DNA of 64,000 bases, from assembly GCA_965222155.1 (NCBI GenBank), contig CBDCTH010000012.1, forward strand, positions 608,001 to 672,000, given 5' to 3'. Below are positions 327 to 13,726 of the stretch, one piece after another. The notes beneath the pieces were generated by a model. That model was not told the DNA's origin. It did not search any database and saw only the letters and a list, made by a program, of their open reading frames with translations. A program made the translations under genes and the position numbers. Numbering within the stretch: position 1 is the stretch's first letter; the number at the start of each line of letters is the position of its first letter. Source of the stretch: Gammaproteobacteria bacterium (GTDB lineage Bacteria; Pseudomonadota; Gammaproteobacteria; Eutrophobiales; Eutrophobiaceae).

Positions 327-2279
327 CTACTGGCCGGATGACCTGTATCCGGGGTTCAGTTTGCGCTTGTCGCCGATGCGGATGGTCACGCGCGTGCTGT
401 CCAGGTATTCCAGTAACGGTATAGCAAACTTTCTTGAAGTATCCACGAGTTTTCGCATCTCCGCCACGGTAAATGCAGTGGAGTGGGGGTAGGCCCGTTC
501 CAGGTTGCGCACCATCTCGTCGATGCACTGGCGGTGGAAAACCAGCACGCGGTTCAGGCCTTTGCTATATATCGGTACGAGTTCACCAGTTTCCGTCAGG
601 AACTGGTACAGGCGTTTCCTGTGCGGATTGCCTTGCAGTATTTTATTGAGTTCCGGCGGTTTCAAGCCGCCTGATTTAAACACACCGGCGATATCTTCGG
701 CGATCTTTTTCTGTTTTGCATCCAGTGTATTCAATGGGTCGAAATCCTTGAGCCGTATGACGTCATTGTCCACCTGGACAAAACCGTGCTCACTCAGGTG
801 TTCAATCAGTGACCTGAAAACCATGTCGTCAATGCTCCCTTCCAGGCGTGAGCGGAGCTGTGCCAGGGGTTGTCCTTTCCGGATCGGGTTTGCCCCATGA
901 AATCGCTCGATCTCGGACAACACCTGTCCGCATAAGGCATCGAATATCGTCCTTGATAACAACCACTTCGCACCTACACTGACAACCTTTGTTTCATCCA
1001 GAGTGTGAGTCAACTCATCCCTTGCCAGATTCACGGACCTGGACAGGTCCATCATCTCTATTCCCCGTGTCCCTCTTGCCTGGATCAACTCATGTATGAC
1101 GTCTGCCGTGTTCCCGCTTGCCAGCCTGGATAAGCGCGCCACGGCGTGTTGGTCCGAGCGCCGGTGTTTTGTCGGGTTGTTGTCCAGGATGCGCCCGCCG
1201 CCGATAGTCATCACGGGAGACATGCTGCGGACGATAAAACGTTCTCCCACCGGCGCGACAACGTCGCACGCGCAATCAAGCTGGGCAGCAAACGCCGATC
1301 CCGGTTCCACCTGCCCGCCCCCCAAGATACGCAACACCGCTGATACTTCGCAGGTTCCGAACAGGACGCGAATCTTCTCACCGTACCTGGGTAACGGCCC
1401 GGTCCGCTTAAGTAACTGCAACTCCACATCCAGAAGCCGCGCGGGGTTCAGGTATCCCGGAGAAGCCAGAACATCGCCTCTGGCTATCCGGGTTCTGTCA
1501 ACGTTGCGCAGGTTTACCGCGACCCGCTGTCCCGGATACGCGATCTCTTCAGCCTTGTTGTGGACTTGTATTTGACGAATATGGGCCTGGCGGCCGTGCG
1601 GCATGAGCGCGACCTCCTGGCCGTTTGACAGCGTGCCGTTCCTCAAGGTGCCGGTTGCGACGGTGCCGAAACCGGGCATGGTAAACACCCGGTCCAGCGG
1701 CAGGTAACAGTGTCCGATATCTTTTCTCCCGGCGGGATTGAGCAACTGCTTTTCCAGCAGCATCATCAAATTGTTGATGCTGTCCCCATCGCTTATGGAC
1801 GTCTCGGTGATTTGCGCGCCTTCCATGAATGTGCCTGCCGTGAAGTCCCTTATTTCGTCCCTGACCCGGTCACAGTCGGCGCGAGTGACCAGGTCGGACT
1901 TGGTAATCACCACCAGGCCCTTTTCAAGGCCCAGGAGACCCGAGATGTTGAAATGTTCCTGCGTTTGCGGTTTGATCCCCTCATTCGCCGCCACCGTGAG
2001 CAACAGGTAATCTATTCCGGTCGCGCCGGATATCATCATGCGGATGAAATCCTCATGACCGGGGACGTCTATGAAATCGATGACACCGCCTTCCGACTCA
2101 AGGTAGGCGAATCCAGGCACGATCGACAACCCTCTTTCCTTTTCCTCCTTGAGGCGGTCTGTTTCCATGCCGGTAAGGGCCCTGACCAGGCTGGTTTTGC
2201 CGTGATCAACGTGCCCCAGTACACCTATCGTAAGATGTGCGGGTCTATCCGTTGTTTTGTTGGGCCTGGAACCGGCCAT
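327..2279 (-). CDS. selB: Selenocysteine-specific translation elongation factor SelB
   Basis: GHVDHGKT, DVPGHE and TKSD GTPase motifs; C-terminal SRKFAIPLLEYLD winged-helix motif; adjacent to tRNA-Sec. Confidence 0.97.
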   Translation of the reverse strand: MAGSRPNKTTDRPAHLTIGVLGHVDHGKTSLVRALTGMETDRLKEEKERGLSIVPGFAYLESEGGVIDFIDVPGHEDFIRMMISGATGIDYLLLTVAANEGIKPQTQEHFNISGLLGLEKGLVVITKSDLVTRADCDRVRDEIRDFTAGTFMEGAQITETSISDGDSINNLMMLLEKQLLNPAGRKDIGHCYLPLDRVFTMPGFGTVATGTLRNGTLSNGQEVALMPHGRQAHIRQIQVHNKAEEIAYPGQRVAVNLRNVDRTRIARGDVLASPGYLNPARLLDVELQLLKRTGPLPRYGEKIRVLFGTCEVSAVLRILGGGQVEPGSAFAAQLDCACDVVAPVGERFIVRSMSPVMTIGGGRILDNNPTKHRRSDQHAVARLSRLASGNTADVIHELIQARGTRGIEMMDLSRSVNLARDELTHTLDETKVVSVGAKWLLSRTIFDALCGQVLSEIERFHGANPIRKGQPLAQLRSRLEGSIDDMVFRSLIEHLSEHGFVQVDNDVIRLKDFDPLNTLDAKQKKIAEDIAGVFKSGGLKPPELNKILQGNPHRKRLYQFLTETGELVPIYSKGLNRVLVFHRQCIDEMVRNLERAYPHSTAFTVAEMRKLVDTSRKFAIPLLEYLDSTRVTIRIGDKRKLNPGYRSSGQ

Positions 2280-2294
2280 AGCCCGGGGACAGGT

Positions 2295-2657
2295 TCAGGC
2301 CCGGCCTGTGGCCGGGTCTGCAGTCACTATCTCACCGACCATGAGTTCCGGGTCTGCTTCGGTATATTTCGGCCAGTCCTCAGCAAGCTGCCTGCGCGCA
2401 TCTTCAACCGCGAACAGGCTTGTCATGGCGTCCACTTCCTCCCTCCTGTTGAAATACAGGGTGCAGATACAGTGATACGGCGCATTGCCGTCTTTACCGT
2501 CTGAGGTAATATGCTGGTCGACCTCGATCTTCAGTGGTGAAATACCGCGATACTCACGCAGGAGGCGGATGCCCAGGGGCAAATGCACGTCGTAGTAATG
2601 CTGCCAGTCAAACGTCGAACCGGGTTTGTTCGGGTAAACAATTCTCACACTGTACAT
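2295..2657 (-). CDS. EthD family protein
   Basis: MYSVRIVYP...FDWQHYYDVHLPL and the C-terminal DWPKYT pattern fit EthD. Start moved to ATG 2657 because the upstream ORF extension lies in a repeat. Confidence 0.8.
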   Translation of the reverse strand: MYSVRIVYPNKPGSTFDWQHYYDVHLPLGIRLLREYRGISPLKIEVDQHITSDGKDGNAPYHCICTLYFNRREEVDAMTSLFAVEDARRQLAEDWPKYTEADPELMVGEIVTADPATGRA

Positions 2658-2681
2658 GGTTGTTTTCCTGGTTATTTTATT

Positions 2682-2881
2682 GCCACAGAGGACACAGAGA
2701 TCACAGAGTTTGATCCCTGCTGATCCTGCCCAACTCGCCATTCCCGCGCAAGCCGGAATCCAATGAAGCAAGGTACCGCTTTCACTGGCAGGTTACTGAC
2801 TGGATTCCCGCTTGCACGGAAATGGCAGGGGGGACGCCGAAATGAAGATATGAACCTCATATACTCTGTGCCCTCTGTGGC
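2682..2881. repeat. Nested palindromic repeat (outer GCCACAGAG/CTCTGTGGC arms, inner REP-like ATTCCCGC..GGAATCCA/TGGATTCCCGC pair)
   Basis: Inverted arms gccacagaggacacagag and ctctgtgccctctgtggc, with TATT on both sides. A related arm occurs near 46709-46732. Confidence 0.65.
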
Positions 2882-4089
2882 TATTGGGTTGCCTCGCGCA
2901 TGGCTTCCAGGCAGGCGTCGACGGTGTAATGAAAATTCCTCAATGCCAGTTCCTCGTCCTGGAAATGGAAGTATTCCTTGGCGCCGGATTTCAATACCTG
3001 TTGCACCTTCTCATGGGTGACGGTGTCTTCCATCAGGGTATCGCGCAGACCGACCTTGTTGTATTCCTGGCAGAACAACTCCCCGGCATTACGCGGTGGA
3101 ACAGTATTTACCCCGATCTCCCAGATGGTGCGATCGACGGCAAGCGGCCATACGTTGTACATCCAATAGCTGTCCCGCATCAGGCCCATAATCACGTTGG
3201 GAAAGATGAAATACAGGTTCATAGCGCCTTTCAGGTGATATTTTTTCGTATCGGTTCGGCGCGGCTCCGTAAAGGCAAACGCATCGTAGGCGCCAATCCC
3301 GTATTTCAGGCTCACCTGACCCGTCGGGGTAGGATTAAACACTGGAGGAGGTTCCGTGCCCACGAGCCCATGGGGACCCAGGACTTCCAATATACTGTGG
3401 CGTAATAACATACCGGCGGCAGAAGTGGACCGAGCCAGACTGTTTTTGTGCAGGAATGGCACGTGCCAGCCTTCCAGTTGTGCGTCCAGCAACACCTTCC
3501 AGTTGACTTTTTCATCCACGCTGTACCATTCGCGCCGGGTCAATTCAGCGAACGGGTAATCCTTGAGGGATGTGGTGACCGGCTCCAGGTAGTCTTCCAG
3601 TGATTGCTCATCCATGGGCTTGAGGCGGATGAAGATGAAGCCGTTCCATACGTCCGCCTGGATTTCCGTCATATCCAGGTTGGCATCCGGGCCGGTGAAA
3701 AAGTTTTCCTTGTCGGTCATGTTGATCAGCTTGCCCCGGGTATCGAAGGCCCAGCCGTGGAACGGACAGACGAAGGCGCCCCGGCACTTGCCACGCTTTT
3801 GCCAGACCACCTGGTTGGCGCGGTGTGAACACATGTTGTGGAAGGAGCGGATGACGTTGTCACGCCCGCGCACCACCAGTACCGAGGTATAGCACACCTC
3901 GATATCCCTGACGAAGTAATCACCCGCTTCGGGGATCAGTTCAACCCGTCCTACGTTCAGCCAGGAGCGGCGGAATACCGCCTCCCGCTCCGCCTTGAAT
4001 ACGTCAGGGTCGATACATGGCTGGATGGGGAGCGGATCCGTTCCCAGCTCGGGGTATTTTACCGTATGTGTTTTATGGGTCAGTTCCAC
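2881..4089 (-). CDS. Rieske aromatic ring-hydroxylating oxygenase alpha subunit
   Basis: Rieske CSH...CPFHGW motif and mononuclear iron motif EGWHVPFLH. Confidence 0.92.
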   Translation of the reverse strand: MELTHKTHTVKYPELGTDPLPIQPCIDPDVFKAEREAVFRRSWLNVGRVELIPEAGDYFVRDIEVCYTSVLVVRGRDNVIRSFHNMCSHRANQVVWQKRGKCRGAFVCPFHGWAFDTRGKLINMTDKENFFTGPDANLDMTEIQADVWNGFIFIRLKPMDEQSLEDYLEPVTTSLKDYPFAELTRREWYSVDEKVNWKVLLDAQLEGWHVPFLHKNSLARSTSAAGMLLRHSILEVLGPHGLVGTEPPPVFNPTPTGQVSLKYGIGAYDAFAFTEPRRTDTKKYHLKGAMNLYFIFPNVIMGLMRDSYWMYNVWPLAVDRTIWEIGVNTVPPRNAGELFCQEYNKVGLRDTLMEDTVTHEKVQQVLKSGAKEYFHFQDEELALRNFHYTVDACLEAMREATQ

Positions 4090-4124
4090 GGGCAGTCACT
4101 TCGTTCAATGACTGGAGTACATGC

Positions 4125-4475
4125 TCATGGACACGGTGAAGGGACCGAAGTCGCTTCACCGGGAACGAAACGGCGCATGTCCAGACCGAAAGGGTGATCC
4201 GGCCGCTTGTACAATTCCACAGCAACCCATACCTCGGCCAGCGACAGGGTCATATTCAGCAGGCGTTGCTCGGGTTCAGGCATCTGATCCAGGGGAAAAC
4301 CGTTCAGGTGGCCAAGCGCCTCTTCGATACGTGCCAGCATGGCGGAATAAAACGCCTGGATTTCTTCCATGGAAGAGGCGAGACGTTTTTGCAGGCGTTC
4401 GGTTTCGCCGAACAGCGCCCAATCGGCAAAAGGTTCCAGGTCAGTGAAACCGGAGGGTAACAGGCAATCATTCAC
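4125..4475 (-). CDS. Conserved hypothetical protein associated with Rieske oxygenase clusters
   Basis: LPSGFTDLEPFADWAL..ETERLQKRLASSMEEIQAFY resembles small proteins seen beside Rieske genes; co-oriented in the operon. Confidence 0.7.
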   Translation of the reverse strand: MNDCLLPSGFTDLEPFADWALFGETERLQKRLASSMEEIQAFYSAMLARIEEALGHLNGFPLDQMPEPEQRLLNMTLSLAEVWVAVELYKRPDHPFGLDMRRFVPGEATSVPSPCP

Positions 4476-4570
4476 ACCGATATTATTCTATGAAATTGTG
4501 GTCCTCCTGATTATACTGTCTGCAAATTCTCTTGGGAAGCTTGGGCCACTAATGAGGAACTGATAGAACC

Positions 4571-6877
4571 ATGATCCCGGCATGCATCACCAAGGTAGAC
4601 ATTGCGCAAGCCATGCGGCGCATCAAGCGTAATGGAGTTCCTCTGGGAAGACAGGGCCGGAATTACTGCTTGGTGGCAAATGGTGGACATTTGCCTCCGA
4701 AGTACACGATTTCCCTAGCGCATGAGATCGCCACGGGCGAGGCATTGAATTCGAACCGGTTCTCCGGGGGTGCGGAGTCCAATAACTTCCTCCGGCGCTG
4801 CGGCTTCAAGGTTGTCGAGTGCGTTTGCGGCGGTAGCGATCAGGTTGCCAGCCGCGCCGCATCCGTATCTGTATCCGGTTCGTCAGAAAGGGCAAGAACT
4901 ACATCAACGCGTCACTCCGAGCGGTGTCCGGAATGCAAGCAACGGGTTCGTGAACTTCTGGAGCGCATCTACGGGAGGTGCCTGCCGAACCCCGGATTTG
5001 GCTGGCGAACCGACCTCGCCCCTTATGCGAAAACCTCGATTGGTACTGCCCTGCAGGACGTGGCCACAATGCTGCAGACGTATCGGGGGTTCGGTATCAG
5101 TGACTTTGTACGAAACAAAACGCTGGCGGGCTGCGATTTCTGGGTCCCCGACCCCGACTTCATCGTCGAGTTCGACGAGAGTCAGCATTTCACGAGTGCG
5201 CGGAAGCTCGCGCTTTCCGTGTACGCGGACGATAAGCCCCTAGGGTTCTCCGCGAAGCGCTGGATCACACTATGCGAGAAGCACAATGCGAAGGACAATG
5301 ACCCCCCCTTCCGCGACGAGCAACGCGCCTGGTACGATACGTTGCGAGACCTCGTTCCGTCAATCAAGGGTTTGCGTCCGACAGTGAGGCTCTATGCTCG
5401 TGACCGGGTCTGGTGCTCACTCGACCCGGACAGCGAGGAGGATCAAAAACGTTTCTCAGACCTGATGCATCAGGGGCGTCCTCCGTCCGGTCAAACAACT
5501 GCAGCCATCCGCTCCTCCGCTGATCGGCCAACATCAATCCTTCGAGTGGCGATGGTGTTTCCTCCAGTGGAACAGAGGTCGAAGAACGGTGTTCCACCCA
5601 GTGGAGCGGAGGCTCACAGACCAAAGGTGCCTTCGAGGAAACAATTCGCTGACGAATCCGTCGATTTTGTACTGTTTCCCGAAGGGTATATACGCGCGTC
5701 CGACGTCAAACGCAAAAGGTTATTGCAGAAGCTCGCTTCCGATTTAGACGCGCCGTTATTGGTAGGTGCAACCGACAACAGTGTTGACCCGGACAGTTGC
5801 CGCAACTGGCAGGTTCTTCTTCGCTTTGAACCCGGTGGCTCCTGTCCGTGCCGCGTATATGTAAAACACTCTACTGCGGAAGCGGTTGCCTTTGGGATGC
5901 CGGAATGGGAACCGCATGTCAGGCTCCCAACCTTTGAATTGGGTGGCGTAAGAGCTGGGGCAACAATTTGTCACGACCACTACCTGGGATTGCTTCCACG
6001 CTTTCTTGGCAAGAACGGAGCGCGGGTATGGGTGAATCCAAGTTTTGACAATGTAGTGGATATCAAGTGGTCATCGGTTCTACGGTTAAGGGCGGTGGAG
6101 AACCGTTTCTTCGCACTATGCACATTACACTGCGACGTGACGAAGAGGAAGAGGAAGAGGCCGAGAACTCACCCTTTCGCGTTCTCTCCTGACGGCAGCG
6201 AACTATCGGCTAGACAGGCGGGTTCTGAAGACGTACAACCTTTGTCAGAATGCCACAAGCCCGGCATCTACATCATCGAACTCGATATGGCGGCGGTGGA
6301 CGAACCGCTCGACTGGTCGAAGCTCCCAAACGCTGAAAAACAGAAGTGCACCCGGAAGGAAAGCGAAGATAGCAAACTCGTACGCGTCAAATTGAAGGGC
6401 AGACGGCCGACCGTGTTCGGATGCTCGGGCTGGAAGAGTGGCGATACCGGCTCGTGCGTCGAGACCGATCACGGTCCGGTCTACGTGGGGGTGGTACCGG
6501 GAGAGCGGATTCTGGATGCGGCCGAGTGCTTTAATGTGCTCTATCAAGCGAGAAAGATGAAATGTACGCCAATCATCTGGAATCACTGGGAGCAGCTTCC
6601 GGCCGATTCGGCGAAGCTGGCAACGCTCATGATGGGAAGGGCGATTGAGTGCTGCGCGCCAATCGTCATTTCTGACCGAGGTGGGATATGTGAGTTGGTC
6701 GAGTTATCGAATAAAAACAAGATCCCCGCTCGGAGAAAGATGGAGGAGTCTGGGGAAGCGATAGCGGATATCAGATATGCATGGGGATTGAAATCTGCGT
6801 TCAATATGGTGGAGGAAAATATTCGCCCCGGAAACAAGAAGCGAGAAGCATTGAAGCGCTATCGGAGCCTTGGCTAG
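4571..6877 (+). CDS. Multidomain protein: restriction-associated N-terminal head domain + putative nuclease + carbon-nitrogen hydrolase (nitrilase) domain
   Basis: N-terminal PPKYTISLA..FSGGAESNNFLRRCGF; central DFWVP..IVEFDESQHF; nitrilase triad LFPEG / YVKHS / ICHD plus RAVEN. Confidence 0.75.
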   Translation: MIPACITKVDIAQAMRRIKRNGVPLGRQGRNYCLVANGGHLPPKYTISLAHEIATGEALNSNRFSGGAESNNFLRRCGFKVVECVCGGSDQVASRAASVSVSGSSERARTTSTRHSERCPECKQRVRELLERIYGRCLPNPGFGWRTDLAPYAKTSIGTALQDVATMLQTYRGFGISDFVRNKTLAGCDFWVPDPDFIVEFDESQHFTSARKLALSVYADDKPLGFSAKRWITLCEKHNAKDNDPPFRDEQRAWYDTLRDLVPSIKGLRPTVRLYARDRVWCSLDPDSEEDQKRFSDLMHQGRPPSGQTTAAIRSSADRPTSILRVAMVFPPVEQRSKNGVPPSGAEAHRPKVPSRKQFADESVDFVLFPEGYIRASDVKRKRLLQKLASDLDAPLLVGATDNSVDPDSCRNWQVLLRFEPGGSCPCRVYVKHSTAEAVAFGMPEWEPHVRLPTFELGGVRAGATICHDHYLGLLPRFLGKNGARVWVNPSFDNVVDIKWSSVLRLRAVENRFFALCTLHCDVTKRKRKRPRTHPFAFSPDGSELSARQAGSEDVQPLSECHKPGIYIIELDMAAVDEPLDWSKLPNAEKQKCTRKESEDSKLVRVKLKGRRPTVFGCSGWKSGDTGSCVETDHGPVYVGVVPGERILDAAECFNVLYQARKMKCTPIIWNHWEQLPADSAKLATLMMGRAIECCAPIVISDRGGICELVELSNKNKIPARRKMEESGEAIADIRYAWGLKSAFNMVEENIRPGNKKREALKRYRSLG

Positions 6878-7007
6878 TGTGGGTTTCTATCGTGATATAT
6901 TTGACTCTTTTGAGAAGGAACGTTCGCCCTGCAAACTATTATGATCATTGAACGTCCCGGAGGTTTTGGGTTGACATGTCCCGGTTAGGCGGGGGACTGA
7001 TTGAACA

Positions 7008-7598
7008 ATGAGGAAAGTATTTTTCAGTTTTGATTGGGATGACGTTTTGCGCGTCCATCAAGTCCGTAACAGTTTGGCTACAAAAGGTAACTATAAGACA
7101 GCCGGCCTTCCAGACGTTGCGGAGATAGAGAAGACCAGGAAACAATCGAATAAAGAAATCCGAAAATGGATAGATGAGCAATTGACAGGGACGTCTGTCA
7201 CCTGTGTTCTTATCGGTAACAGGACAAATAAAAGCAAGTGGGTCAAGTACGAGATAGAAAAGAGTATTAAAAAAAGGAATGGACTTTTAGGAGTTCTTAT
7301 TCACGAGTTAAAGGACATAAATAGTTGTATGGATGGAATAGCAGAGCACCCTTTTAAAGGTTACAATCAGACTGATTGCGCCGCGTTAGTTAAAAACGCC
7401 CTGCTTGGAAGAGGCGCGGGATGGGGTCTTTCAAAGCTTCTATTCCCTCAACTTTCTATTGGGTTAGCTGTTTTTGGAACTGCTCTTGCTATGCTGGGGC
7501 CAAAAGACGATTACAGAATTTATGATTGGGTTGAAGATAATGGGGATGCTAACTTGGGGAACTGGATAGAAGAAGCTGCGAAGCAAGTGGGCAGCTAA
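7008..7598 (+). CDS. TIR domain protein (MTH538/DUF1863, ThsB-like)
   Basis: RKVFFSF, TSVTCVLIG, WVKYEIEKS (catalytic Glu), NGLLGVLIH and C-terminal YDWV..NLGNWIEEAA. Confidence 0.88.
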   Translation: MRKVFFSFDWDDVLRVHQVRNSLATKGNYKTAGLPDVAEIEKTRKQSNKEIRKWIDEQLTGTSVTCVLIGNRTNKSKWVKYEIEKSIKKRNGLLGVLIHELKDINSCMDGIAEHPFKGYNQTDCAALVKNALLGRGAGWGLSKLLFPQLSIGLAVFGTALAMLGPKDDYRIYDWVEDNGDANLGNWIEEAAKQVGS

Positions 7599-7652
7599 GG
7601 AACGTTGTGTTAAAAGGACGGACTACCGCTGACAGCATAAGGGACCACATCT

Positions 7653-8301
7653 ATGCAAAACCTGTACATATTTGTAGATGAAAGCGGAAACTTTGATTTC
7701 TCCGAAAAAGGGACACGTTTTTTAACTCTGACTTGCATAATAACAGAGCGCCCCCTTTGGATTTTACAAGGAGCTGCACGAGGCAAGATATGATTTAATT
7801 GAGTATGGCATTCCTGTTGAAGCTTTTCACTGTGCAGGGGACAACAAACATATCAGGGCCAGAATTTTTCAACTTATCCAGAATTATCAAATAAAATTTG
7901 GAATCAACAGCCTGATTGTTGAGAAGAACAAGATTGGGCTTTCGCTTCAGAAACCGGAAACGTTCTACACAAAGTTGCTGGGGTATCTTATAGGGCATGT
8001 CTTCAATGACTACCCGTGTAGACAAGCCAGTAAAATTGTTATTGTCACAGATACCATCCCGATACAAAGGAAGCGTAAGGCAACAGAAAAATCAATAAAG
8101 GTGACCCTGGCGCAAATGTTGCCCAAAGATACGAGGCTCACAATTTTACACCATACAGCCAAGGCTCATTATGGACTACAGGTTGCAGACTATTGCAGTT
8201 GGAGTATTTTCAGAAAATAGGAGTATGGAGATGAAGAAAGCTACAAATTAATCAAACCAGCTATACAAAGCGAATTTGAAGTCTTCCTTGCCGGAATGTG
8301 A
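7653..8301 (+). pseudogene. DUF3800 family protein, disrupted by a frameshift in the C-run near 7751-7755 and an in-frame TAG at 8218-8220
   Basis: Starts MQNLYIFVDESGNFDF and continues in a shifted frame through FHCAGD to GLQVADYCSWSIFRK*EYGDEESYKLIK. DESG and LQxAD are DUF3800 hallmarks. Confidence 0.82.
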
Positions 8302-8324
8302 GATGGTGTTAAGAAACGAAGGGA

Positions 8325-8394
8325 ACGACCTCCCCGACTACTCCATTTCTGGAGAGGTCCCCTTGGGCTCTTATCATCGGGGAGGAACCTTTGT
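8325..8394 (+). ncRNA. Putative DUF3800-associated structured RNA
   Basis: Outer stem CCTCCCCGA (8329-8337)/TCGGGGAGG (8377-8385) encloses a CTCCA-TTTC-TGGAG hairpin and a second short stem, directly 3' of the DUF3800 gene. Confidence 0.6.
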
Positions 8395-8534
8395 ATTAAT
8401 TATAGGATAAAAAAGTAAAAAATACTATAAAAAAACGACATAAAAATATCAGGGAAGGGAAACCGGTATGTCTGCATCTAATCAGGGATTTCTCCATAAT
8501 ACTATCCGTATTTTCTGTGAAGGAATAAAAAAAC

Positions 8535-10631
8535 ATGGGCTATCAAATCGGCATTGACGTGGGCGGCACCTTCACCGACCTGCTGGTCTGCGATGAGGGC
8601 GGGCGGACCCGCATTTGCAAGTCGCCTACTACGCCGGCGGACCCCAGCCTGGGTGTGTTTACCGCCCTCGAACAGGCCGCGCGGGACACCGGTTTCGAAC
8701 TCCGTGATTTTCTTGCCGATGTGGACGCCATTGTCCACGGCACCACGATCACCACCAATGCGGTGCTTACCCATACCGGCGCCAACACCGGTTTCATCAC
8801 CACCCGGGGGTTCCGCGACCTGCTGGCCCTGCGCCGGGGCATGAAGACGGGAGAACGTTACGACCTGGAACTGGCGCCGCCGCCTACCCTGGTCGAACGG
8901 GCGTTGACCCTGACGGTGACCGAACGGGTCGACGCCAAGGGCAGAATCCTCACTCCCCTGGTGGAAGATGATGTGCGCGCGGCAGCGGAAGTACTGCGTA
9001 GCGCCGGGGTCGAAGCCGTCGCGGTCTCCTATCTCTGGTCGTTTCTCAACCCGGAGCATGAATTGCGCACCCGGGAAATCCTGCAGGAAATATTGCCCGG
9101 GGTGTACATCTCATTGTCCTGTGAGGTATTGCCGCAGATACGGGTGTACGAACGCAACAGTACCACTGCCCTGAATTCCTGCACGGGACCGCCACTGGCA
9201 CGTTACCTGGATAACCTGGAAGTACGCCTGGGCGAAAACGGTTTCCGTGGCGTGTTGAACATCATGCAGTCCAATGGCGGCTGTATGTCTCCGAAGGTCA
9301 CCAGCCGGTTTGCCGTCAATACCTTGCTGTCCGGCCCCGCCGGTGGTCCCGGTGCCGGAATGCATTACGGGCGCACCCACGGTTATAAAAATATCATCAG
9401 CGTGGATATGGGCGGCACCAGTTTCGACGTTGCCCTGGTGCAGGATGAACGTGCGGCTGTCACGTCGGAAAACGAAGTGGCGGGCTTCCACGTGGCGGTG
9501 CCCATGCTGGACATCCACACTGTCGGCGCCGGGGGTGGATCGATTGCCGGCGTCGATGACGGCGGGATGTTGCACGTCGGGCCGGCCAGCGCCGGCGCCG
9601 ATCCCGGTCCTGCCTGTTACGGCCGCGGCGGAACCGAGCCGACGGTAACGGACGCGGACCTGGTGCTGGGTTACCTGGCTGCCGATTACTTCCACGGCGG
9701 CGCCCTGAAGCTGGACCGTGCCGCAGCCGTTGCAGCCATCGAAAGCAGGATTGCCGGGCCGTTGGGTTTGTCCGTTACGGATGCCGCCTATGGGATCTAC
9801 CGGGTGGCGAATTCGATCATGAGCAATGCCGTCACGGTGGTGACGGTGCAACGCGGTCTGGACCCGCGCGAGTTTGCCATGATCGTCGCCGGTGGCGCCG
9901 GACCGATACACGCGGTGCCCATCGCCAGGGAACTGGGTATCCACACTTTGCTGGTGCCCAGGGAATCCTCCGTATTCTGCGCGGCCGGCATGCTGCTGTC
10001 CGACCTGAAGCATACCTATATACGCACCTGCGCCATGGTCGGTTCCCTGGTGGATTTCAGGATCATCAATGAAGCAATACATAACATGCGGGATATGGCG
10101 CTTGCAACATTCAGGGAAGAGCAGGTCGACGGCGCTGATGTGACCCTGGATTTCTCGGCTGACCTGCGTTACGTCGGCCAGTTCAATGAGGTCGAGGTGC
10201 CCGGTTTCAGCGGCGGCACGGCGGATAGTACGGCGTGGGAGCAACTGGTAGACCAATTCCACCGGCTCCACGACGAGCGCTACGGCTACAGCCTGCCCCA
10301 TGCGGAAGTGGAGCTCATCAACCTGCGCCTGAGCGCCACAGGCGCCACGAAAAAACCGGTGACGCAGAAACACGAACTCGGCGGCCCTGCGGCCGATCAC
10401 GCCCGCAAGGGAGAACGCCCCGCCTGGTTCGACAACAGGATGGTGACCGTACCCGTCTACGACGGTCTTGCCTTGCAGCCGGGTAACCGGCTACCGGGCC
10501 CGGCCATCGTCGAACAACCGACAACAACCATCGTATTACCGGGTGACACCGGACTCAGTTGCGATCAGTGGGGAAATTACCTCCTGGAAAAAGCGGATAT
10601 TTGGGGTCAGAGTAAAAATACAGTGAATTAA
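8535..10631 (+). CDS. Hydantoinase/oxoprolinase family protein, subunit A
   Basis: GIDVGGTFTD, HGTTITTNA, SGPAGG, DMGGTSFD, GAGGGSIA and GPASAGADPGPACYGRGG motifs. Confidence 0.95.
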   Translation: MGYQIGIDVGGTFTDLLVCDEGGRTRICKSPTTPADPSLGVFTALEQAARDTGFELRDFLADVDAIVHGTTITTNAVLTHTGANTGFITTRGFRDLLALRRGMKTGERYDLELAPPPTLVERALTLTVTERVDAKGRILTPLVEDDVRAAAEVLRSAGVEAVAVSYLWSFLNPEHELRTREILQEILPGVYISLSCEVLPQIRVYERNSTTALNSCTGPPLARYLDNLEVRLGENGFRGVLNIMQSNGGCMSPKVTSRFAVNTLLSGPAGGPGAGMHYGRTHGYKNIISVDMGGTSFDVALVQDERAAVTSENEVAGFHVAVPMLDIHTVGAGGGSIAGVDDGGMLHVGPASAGADPGPACYGRGGTEPTVTDADLVLGYLAADYFHGGALKLDRAAAVAAIESRIAGPLGLSVTDAAYGIYRVANSIMSNAVTVVTVQRGLDPREFAMIVAGGAGPIHAVPIARELGIHTLLVPRESSVFCAAGMLLSDLKHTYIRTCAMVGSLVDFRIINEAIHNMRDMALATFREEQVDGADVTLDFSADLRYVGQFNEVEVPGFSGGTADSTAWEQLVDQFHRLHDERYGYSLPHAEVELINLRLSATGATKKPVTQKHELGGPAADHARKGERPAWFDNRMVTVPVYDGLALQPGNRLPGPAIVEQPTTTIVLPGDTGLSCDQWGNYLLEKADIWGQSKNTVN

Positions 10632-12685: not shown

Positions 12686-13726
12686 ATGAAGACACAAGAC
12701 ATATTCGGTTCGTTGTTTGACTTGCAAGACACCCGCTTGAATAAACTGAAGGATCCCCTGGTGCGGTTGGGTGAGGTAGTGGACTGGGAGGCGTTTCGTC
12801 CGCTATTGGTGCGTATTCGACCCACGACCCGCAAGCGCAATGCGGGCGCCCCGCGTCGGGATGAGGTGCTGCTGTTCAAGGGGTTGGTGATACAGCATTT
12901 GTACGGGTTGAGTGATGAGCAGTTGGAATATCAGCTTGAAGATCGGCGCAGTTTTCAGCGGTTTATGGGGTTGGATAACTATCATCGGGCGCCGGCTGCG
13001 AAGACCTTCTGGGCGTTTCGTGAGAAGTTGGTGGAGCTGAAATTGATGGAGGAACTATTTGCACGGTTTGCCGAGCAGTTAGCAGACTTGGGGTATCGGG
13101 CGCGCAAGGGGCAGTTGGTGGACGCGTCCCTGGTGCCGGTGCCGGTGCAGCGCAACACGCGCGAGGAGAATGCGGCGATAAAGGCGGGGGAGACGCCTGC
13201 GGGCTGGGACGATGAGGCAGCCAAATCCAAGCGGCGGCAGAAGGACGTGGAGGCACGTTGGACGAAGCAGCGGGGCAGGAGTCATTACGGGTACAAGAAT
13301 CACGTGAACGTGGACAACAAGCACAAGCTGATACGCACGTATGCGGTGAGCGCGGCGACTGTGCATGATTCCCAACTGCTCGATGAGTTGTTGGATGAGC
13401 ACAACAGCAGCAAGGCGATATGGGCGGACCGCGCCTACCGTTCCAGGGAGCAGGAGGAACGCTTGCAGGCCCAGCGCTACCGCAGCCACATTCAGCGCAA
13501 GGGGCGCCGCAACAAGCCGTTGACGGCGTGGGCGCAGCAGGGCAACCGCACGCGGGCCAAGGTGCGGGTGCGGGTGGAACACGTGTTCGGGGCGCAGTGT
13601 GCGACCCGGGCCAAGCTGATACACTGTATCGGGCTGGCGCGCAGTGAGTTGGCCATAGGGATGCTGAACCTGGTGTATAACATGCGACGATTGTGTTACC
13701 TGGAAGGGGTCAGCGCGCCCGCATGA
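12686..13726 (+). CDS. IS5 family transposase
   Basis: YGLSDEQLE..DRRSFQRF, VDAS, YGYKNH, VHDS, WADRAY and RVRVEHVFG DDE motifs. Confidence 0.95.
   Translation: MKTQDIFGSLFDLQDTRLNKLKDPLVRLGEVVDWEAFRPLLVRIRPTTRKRNAGAPRRDEVLLFKGLVIQHLYGLSDEQLEYQLEDRRSFQRFMGLDNYHRAPAAKTFWAFREKLVELKLMEELFARFAEQLADLGYRARKGQLVDASLVPVPVQRNTREENAAIKAGETPAGWDDEAAKSKRRQKDVEARWTKQRGRSHYGYKNHVNVDNKHKLIRTYAVSAATVHDSQLLDELLDEHNSSKAIWADRAYRSREQEERLQAQRYRSHIQRKGRRNKPLTAWAQQGNRTRAKVRVRVEHVFGAQCATRAKLIHCIGLARSELAIGMLNLVYNMRRLCYLEGVSAPA

Follow-up and report, generated by a model that had tools for sequence, protein, structure and literature searches.

A single-chain fusion of a ScoMcrA-type head, a probable Vsr-like nuclease domain and a nitrilase: a candidate bacterial defence gene

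We analyzed a 64,000-nucleotide (nt) stretch of a gammaproteobacterial genome of the family Eutrophobiaceae (GenBank assembly GCA_965222155.1, contig CBDCTH010000012.1, positions 608,001 to 672,000), here called the window, to which all coordinates refer unless another locus is named. A gene on its + strand at 4571–6877, P0001, encodes a new single-chain architecture made from known domains: a head domain of the type found in the restriction enzyme ScoMcrA, a central domain that probably adopts a Vsr-like restriction-endonuclease fold, and a nitrilase-superfamily domain with a conserved subdomain packed on it. The fusion gene is accessory, partnerless and often decaying in its distribution, and it is a candidate defence gene. 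The reading that we favor, at somewhat less than an even chance of being right, is that P0001 is a self-contained, horizontally scattered conflict enzyme with two catalytic modules, most likely acting against phages or other mobile DNA.

The open reading frame (ORF) starts with ATG and specifies 768 amino acids (aa). All motifs quoted for it in an initial annotation, which was made from the DNA letters and their translations, were located in this product: PPKY (aa 42–45), HSERCPEC (115–122), VEFDESQHF (199–207), RDEQRAWYD (248–256) and FPEG (369–372), followed in the C-terminal part by YVKHS (430–434), ICHD (466–469), RAVEN (507–511) and RAIEC (690–694). A word-indexed protein search found 918 proteins at E ≤ 0.001 among 8000 scored candidates. 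The 120 homologues listed of these 918 were 60–100% identical to P0001 over 85–100% of its length, and 113 of the 120 carried both PF26345 (ScoMcrA_N) and PF00795 (CN_hydrolase), as did P0002, a protein cluster 100% identical to the window protein. In an exhaustive search of representatives clustered at 50% identity, 1422 matched at E ≤ 0.001, of which 643 reached ≤ 1e-10 and 229 reached ≤ 1e-30; full-length relatives were found down to 35–58% identity (P0122, P0125–P0128, P0137). Because full-length homologues are conserved and Pfam recognizes a CN_hydrolase domain, 4571–6877 is, on sequence grounds, a genuine gene and not a chance frame. Nor is the fusion a one-off chimera, a possibility raised in the initial annotation, as hundreds of full-length homologues occur in several phyla. 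Where databases name these proteins, the name is only "carbon-nitrogen hydrolase family protein" (Nitrospira, Rhodospirillales); two more carriers are recorded as Acidobacteriota and Dadabacteria.

The carbon-nitrogen hydrolase domain occupies 5531–6313 (+; aa 321–581), as judged from both Pfam and the fold. The Pfam match (PF00795, aa 381–555) scored 41.8 bits against a cut-off of 23.2 (E 1e-10), and a profile of the nitrilase part matched the Nit2 structure 2w1v with an E value of 2.7e-7. We predicted the structure of P0001 in two parts, aa 1–320 and aa 321–768, using homologue alignments. The C part was modeled as one rigid unit, with a predicted local distance difference test score (pLDDT) of 92.7 and a predicted template modeling score (pTM) of 0.93, and Foldseek returned 213 PDB matches to it at E ≤ 0.001. 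With VIA-align, 24 chains reached Z ≥ 8, all of them nitrilase-superfamily proteins with the alpha-beta-beta-alpha sandwich fold; the closest solved structures were Nit2 (2w1v, Z 24.8 over 233 aa), 1ems (Z 23.5) and 5g3o (Z 23.5). The Glu-Lys-Cys triad claimed in the initial annotation is present and conserved: E371 of the FPEG motif (5681–5683, +) and K432 of YVKHS (5864–5866, +) were each found in 28 of 29 aligned sequences, and C467 of ICHD (5969–5971, +) in all 29. A second catalytic glutamate, which would complete a tetrad, was sought from the alignment; E437 occurred in only 13 of the 29 sequences. All curated NCBIfam equivalog models scored far below their cut-offs on P0001.

The remainder of the protein, 6314–6874 (+; aa 582–768), forms a subdomain that is packed on the nitrilase in the same predicted rigid unit and has no fold assignment. 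Its invariant residues are W670, N671, R690, E711 and K717. A profile of the subdomain had no PDB sequence match at E ≤ 10, and a protein-language-model atlas offered weak leads only, to clusters of CN_hydrolase fragments. The initial annotation had suggested, from the RAIEC motif, that the last ~190 aa might be a degenerate nitrilase repeat. This idea gained no support: hhalign comparison of aa 583–768 with aa 321–582 gave a probability of 0.2%. Its other three domain calls, for the head, the nuclease-like region and the nitrilase, are each backed by our results.

The predicted N part (aa 1–320; mean pLDDT 89.6) consists of two confident domains separated by a disordered linker. The first is a ScoMcrA_N head domain at 4571–4825 (+; aa 1–85), which holds the PPKY, FSGG and FL..GF motifs and was modeled with pLDDT >90. 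Three approaches agreed on this assignment. The precomputed PF26345 match on the 100%-identical cluster places the head at aa 4–85; a profile of 60 homologues matched residues 4–99 of the ScoMcrA structure 5zmm_A with an E value of 1.6e-6; and VIA-align superposed the head on 5ZMM with Z 8.0 and a root-mean-square deviation (rmsd) of 2.1 Å over 64 residues, at 28% identity. Thus, of the ScoMcrA/McrB resemblance originally proposed for this region, the ScoMcrA half holds by profile, fold and Pfam family and the McrB half does not, as only ScoMcrA was matched. The ScoMcrA study describes that enzyme's head as a small domain on a flexible attachment, for which no function is known (PMC6224610). 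In P0001, the head is followed by a Ser-rich linker at 4826–4903 (+; aa 86–111) that is predicted to be disordered (pLDDT <50 at residues 95–111). The PDB profile match of the N module was limited to the head.

The central domain, at 4904–5482 (+; aa 112–304), was modeled with pLDDT 96–98 and contains a Cys cluster. Fold comparison indicates that it probably belongs to the restriction-endonuclease, or PD-(D/E)xK, class and is Vsr-like. Its best structural neighbor by VIA-align was the Vsr endonuclease (1cw0; Z 6.6, rmsd 3.8 Å, 113 aa), and matches of aa 118–304 to Vsr-like endonucleases had Z scores of 5.1–6.6. The next neighbors were RAP modules, the homing endonuclease I-Bth0305I (3R3P), NGO0050 (3HRL), Bax1 and TnsA; judged by title, at least 25 of the 50 listed structural matches are restriction-endonuclease-fold nucleases. 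Since every Z score was <8, we consider the fold call probable rather than proven. In sequence, the domain gave only a weak Pfam match to DUF7255 (aa 195–240), and sequence and profile searches found no PDB relative of it.

Conservation within this domain is concentrated in two blocks. The first, VEFDESQHF (5165–5191, +; aa 199–207), is a putative nuclease active-site motif: all 60 aligned sequences have E200, D202 and H206, and E203 and Q205 each occur in 59, in an alignment that takes in fusions with other C-terminal domains. The second, DNDPPFRDEQRAWYD (5294–5338, +; aa 242–256), includes D242, R248, R252 and D256, which were likewise found in all 60 sequences, as were R211, R259, D260 and R273 elsewhere in the domain. 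Together with the Vsr-like fold neighbors, these invariant residues lend weight to the likeness to Vsr/DUF559-type nucleases that had been drawn from the ExDExQH region. C119-x2-C122 (4925–4936, +), with C235 and C282, makes up a putative four-Cys metal site (C119, C122 and C282 were present in 58 and C235 in 53 of the 60 sequences). We take this cluster to be a probable structural site that resembles the zinc site of Vsr.

The N module also occurs with other partners. In the representative search, many proteins of 520–770 aa matched P0001 only at aa 1–300 or 114–300; they form a second and larger set of fusions (P0142–P0267, alignment A1). The C-terminal parts of 56 such proteins fell into groups of 47, 5, 2, 1 and 1; Pfam identified DUF7255 in 10 of the 56 proteins and no other family, and when their alignment was used as a profile against the PDB, the ScoMcrA head was the only match. 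The group of 47 has an unannotated C-terminal domain of ~290 aa, whose profile weakly matched the nitrilase part of P0001 over 105 columns (hhalign probability 27%, E 6.6e-4). A "PGG" there aligned with FPE, and a Lys and a Cys aligned with K432 and C467. The domain thereby shows Gly at the position of the catalytic Glu, with Lys and Cys retained. It may be a nitrilase that has diverged greatly or been repurposed. The match suggests, as a lead only, that the head and Vsr-like module may habitually be joined to nitrilase-like domains. Each half is also found by itself: N-only proteins include a 349-aa cluster with ScoMcrA_N and DUF7255, and C-only proteins of 430–470 aa exist (P0131, P0150, P0154, P0169).

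We determined how the fusion gene is distributed. Among 401 genomes sampled from the window's phylum, only the window's own had it. It was absent from all 22 other genomes of the genus and present in 5 of 401 genomes from the phylum of another homologue locus (L001, recorded as Acidobacteriota). Carriers have a single copy per genome. We compared the surroundings at 21 other homologue loci (L001, L002, L004–L018 and four loci in Acidobacteriota genomes, extended to 8 kb in both directions), for which between none and 8 kb of flanking sequence was at hand. Pfam analysis of 58 and a further 41 flanking ORFs revealed no conserved neighbor, with ≤2 members in any family. Some neighbors are linked to defence or mobility. 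EcoRII and Dcm lie directly upstream of the homologue in L011, a Schlafen/AlbA_2 protein is encoded beside that in L001, and mobility genes are near the copies in L010 (TrwC relaxase), L005 (tyrosine integrase) and L016 (serine recombinase). AbiEi, IS66, PDC-S01, HicB, a nucleotidyltransferase and a DDE transposase were also recorded among the homologue loci as a set.

Several copies are broken. The copy in genome G538 (G538:C1:3358230-3360503; L027/L031) contains two in-frame TAG stops. In L017, an insertion of ~2.3 kb (2229–4579 of that locus) lies within the FPE motif; it contains ORFs of 266 and 311 aa on opposite strands, the longer of which looks like that of an IS1595/ISXO2-type transposase. 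Since an Rfam scan of the insert gave no match, it is not a recognized group II intron. The L013 copy (4884–6230 of its locus) is without the N module, and an in-frame stop interrupts its C-terminal subdomain; L012, which matches the corresponding part with equal identity, is likely the same locus.

In the window, P0001 is part of an inserted accessory islet of 4.06 kb (4464–8526). On one side of it lies a conserved 116-aa gene that adjoins a Rieske oxygenase gene, and on the other lies hyuA. In blastn comparisons with three genomes of the same genus, homology stopped at 4462/4463 and resumed at 8527–8535. The gap between the Rieske oxygenase gene and hyuA is 4446 nt here, versus 520–680 nt in four of the five same-genus genomes that have both flanking orthologues. 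The islet contains exactly three genes, all on the + strand: P0001; a gene for a 196-aa ThsB-type TIR protein (7008–7598; Pfam ThsB_TIR, 2.1e-21); and a DUF3800 gene (7653–8220; PF12686) that is split over two frames. The G+C content of P0001 (0.55–0.57) is close to that of the flanks and that of the ThsB-DUF3800 part is 0.41–0.46, a contrast that suggests separate origins for the two parts. We found no convincing terminal repeats at the islet: the short, imperfect two-copy matches detected lay off the boundaries and were taken as chance. A DDE transposase gene (DDE_Tnp_1 and DUF772; 12686–13726, +) lies 4 kb downstream of the islet, after hydantoinase A/B genes.

The two PF12686 matches, at 7665–7766 (17.8 bits, profile positions 1–32) and 7840–8217 (29 bits, profile positions 28–149), are in different frames, with the break at a run of five Cs (7751–7755). 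Related contigs from two public sequencing runs are one base shorter at this run, so the gene may really be frameshifted or the assembly may be wrong at the homopolymer. Elsewhere in the genome, contigs C7 and C10 contain two intact DUF3800 copies that are identical. In the same two runs, contigs ~93–97% identical to the window cover the P0001 part and the ThsB-DUF3800 part and abut at 7013–7037, so that close relatives seem to share the full trio. The small ORFs upstream of P0001 (4121–4447, + and 4125–4475, −) had no Pfam or PADLOC match and no homologue beside other P0001 copies. The latter is the 116-aa ORF, which belongs to no Pfam family; because it is conserved, as a 138-aa ORF, beside the Rieske gene in genome G806 (locus L045), we assign it to the flank and not to the islet.

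A model that accommodates these data, and the one we tentatively prefer, is that P0001 is a self-contained conflict enzyme. The N module (head, Cys cluster and Vsr-like domain) would be the nucleic-acid-handling part, binding and probably nicking or cutting DNA, or possibly RNA, through E200, D202 and H206 together with D242, R248, R252 and D256. The nitrilase, with E371, K432 and C467 and its packed subdomain, would contribute the second activity, that of a thiol-based amidase or nitrilase. The target of the nitrilase could be an essential amide-bearing metabolite, as proposed for the reverse-transcriptase (RT) protein DRT1, or a group on nucleic acid, and the two modules would jointly attack invading DNA. 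We infer that the protein has nuclease activity, what the nitrilase acts on, that the modules are coupled and that the role is in defence. In favor of a conflict enzyme are the domain architecture with its conserved residues, the recurrence of the fusion, the hint that the N module is also paired with another nitrilase-like domain, the patchy spread of the gene, its insertion together with a TIR gene, the defence and mobility genes beside some copies, the broken copies and the precedent of DRT1. According to the DRT1 study, that protein defends against phage, and its fused nitrilase is the effector domain, which needs oligomerization and whose substrate is unknown; the authors propose ATP, GTP or NAD+ (PMC13275509).

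Other observations weigh against this model. The match of the central domain to nuclease folds is modest, with all of its Z scores below the caution line of 8, and in a Foldseek search nothing matched the N module at E ≤ 0.001, the top hit being 5zmm_B at E 0.029. Many copies have housekeeping-like neighbors, among them AddB, a GDSL lipase with FtsX, a TonB-dependent receptor, FG-GAP and Big_2 proteins, MTHFR and an aminotransferase. By tblastn, the gene was found in none of 72,556 plasmid records and none of 50,697 phage records; IMG/VR likewise yielded no match, and the protein matched none of the 5027 models of PADLOC-DB v2.0.0 (0 families at E ≤ 1). Finally, in G806 the same site is filled by an unrelated 1174-aa repeat protein. 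Its ORF, between hyuA and the Rieske gene (L045, G806:C1:2599500-2608800; 3316–6840 of the locus, −), is rich in GGxGxD-type repeats and, by eye, looks like an RTX-type calcium-binding protein. Because this cargo is unrelated, the insertion site is a general spot and not a hotspot for defence genes only.

The TIR gene next to P0001 raised the question of whether the two form a non-canonical Thoeris system, in which the ThsB signal would bind the C-terminal subdomain and activate the nuclease or the nitrilase. The TIR protein matches ThsB in PADLOC (ThsB1, 2e-50; candidate PDC-M50B, 2.1e-46), its gene begins 130 nt downstream of P0001 on the same strand of the same islet, and the trio appears to be retained in the near relatives. 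It is also the only ThsB_TIR match in this genome. As no SIR2_2 domain, characteristic of type I ThsA, was detected anywhere in the genome, no type I partner was found for it. Moreover, a 2025 preprint counts 29 putative types of Thoeris effector, DNases and hydrolases among them, although the main text of the preprint mentions neither nitrilase nor DUF3800 (10.64898/2025.12.03.692087). Against these points, tblastn with the window ThsB found no ThsB at 21 of 21 other homologue loci, so on this evidence P0001 is not a Thoeris effector. Two P0001-carrying genomes had no match at all to this query, and of five carrier genomes in the L001 phylum, three have ThsB_TIR genes 1.3–3.6 Mb from the fusion gene and two have none. 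Conversely, nine loci with ThsB homologues in the window's phylum (1.5-kb flanks) contained no P0001-like and no DUF3800 sequence. Nor were ThsB and DUF3800 paired in two further genomes with members of both families, where the genes are >1 Mb apart. P0001 and thsB are also unlike in G+C content. With co-occurrence seen only at the window locus, a partnership of ThsB with P0001 was rejected, and the Thoeris reading is largely refuted by this lack of co-occurrence; we regard it as highly improbable.

Of the readings that keep P0001 without a partner, one is abortive infection by a sensor-effector, in which a non-cutting Vsr-like module senses nucleic acid and the nitrilase destroys an essential metabolite with an amide group, such as NAD+ or a nucleotide. 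The effector role of the nitrilase in DRT1 and the substrates proposed there (PMC13275509), the strict conservation of the triad and the flexible linker between head and Vsr-like domain are in keeping with such a division of labor. However, the putative nuclease residues are invariant (60/60) across fusions with different C-terminal domains, which exceeds what binding alone would demand, and we consider a purely sensing module unlikely. We give similarly little weight to a host enzyme of DNA repair or processing, which would for instance remove amide, carbamoyl or nitrile adducts or base modifications of its own genome, or to some other role outside conflict. Vsr, the best nuclease-fold match, is a repair endonuclease, many homologue loci have housekeeping neighbors, and P0001, unlike the ThsB-DUF3800 part, has a G+C content near that of the flanking genome; yet a repair enzyme is hardly expected in only 1/401, 0/22 and 5/401 genomes, nor is the repeated inactivation of its copies. 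A selfish or addiction element, with a nuclease toxin or homing-type endonuclease on mobile DNA and a nitrilase serving the element, is favored by the fold neighbors, which include the homing endonuclease I-Bth0305I and the transposase nuclease TnsA, and by the integrase, relaxase, recombinase and transposase genes near some copies. We rate it as unlikely too, because no antitoxin-like neighbor is conserved (the small upstream ORFs are not), each genome has a single copy, plasmid and phage records gave no matches and the islet is without convincing terminal repeats. There is also a version of the two-module enzyme in which the nitrilase works on nucleic acid itself: with the nitrilase kept on DNA by the head and Vsr-like module, Cys467 would attack a nitrile- or amide-bearing modified base, reading or erasing it, and so license cleavage. 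Some phages carry 7-cyano- or 7-amido-7-deazaguanines or carbamoylmethyl-adenine in their DNA. Action of P0001 on such bases is pure conjecture, and we view this version as very unlikely. Our preference thus stays with the self-contained conflict enzyme.

The statement in the initial annotation that no system with this architecture had been described agrees with our searches: it is found neither in PADLOC v2 nor in the literature searched, a body that leaves most subscription journals outside. Within that literature, nitrilases in defence were found only as RT fusions, with no nuclease-nitrilase system, and no paper on PF26345 or DUF7255 was found. Nitrilase domains are very rare in known immunity, and the DRT1-type RT-nitrilases are the only tested case. 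If the P0001 family, which is large and conserved, is defensive, it would be a second, unrelated setting for a nitrilase in immunity, fused here to a restriction-like nuclease module. It would then offer an independent way to learn what nitrilases do when bacteria and mobile DNA are in conflict. The family would also provide a second context in which to study the ScoMcrA head domain. Should the nitrilase act on DNA, P0001 would be the first enzyme of its superfamily to do so and would represent a new form of restriction of hypermodified phages. If the family is not defensive, it is still an unannotated two-enzyme family that would link nucleic-acid cleavage with amide chemistry.

Each part of P0001 can be set beside a known system. 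With ScoMcrA, the phosphorothioate-dependent type IV endonuclease of Streptomyces coelicolor (5ZMM), it shares a homologous N-terminal head, in both cases a small domain on a flexible tether ahead of a nuclease or nuclease-like domain. Unlike ScoMcrA, P0001 has no SBD, SRA or HNH domain detectable by Pfam, and thus neither the modified-DNA reader (SBD/SRA) nor the HNH nuclease of type IV ScoMcrA/McrA enzymes in that scan; its nuclease-like domain instead has a predicted Vsr-like fold and is followed by the nitrilase module. In common with Vsr-like endonucleases, this domain has an E-x-D...H motif and then a conserved Arg/Asp-rich helix, but it has no sequence match to Vsr/DUF559-type enzymes, and P0001 differs from these families in its fusions to a head and a nitrilase. 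The nitrilase shares the Glu-Lys-Cys triad and the fold with the Nit2, NitFhit and amidase branches, to which it is only 12–20% identical, and differs from them in the conserved ~190-aa C-terminal subdomain and the N-terminal nuclease-like module. As in Thoeris, there is a TIR gene of the ThsB family, here the next gene downstream within the islet; unlike the genes of Thoeris operons, the pair is not conserved (0/21 other loci), and Pfam detected no SLOG or Macro-type signal-binding domain in P0001. Lastly, like DRT1 and the class 3 UG-Abi proteins, P0001 is a single chain that carries a nitrilase-superfamily domain with an intact catalytic site. It differs in that Pfam detects no reverse-transcriptase domain and no PADLOC DRT model matches it: the partner of the nitrilase in P0001 is a nuclease-like module.

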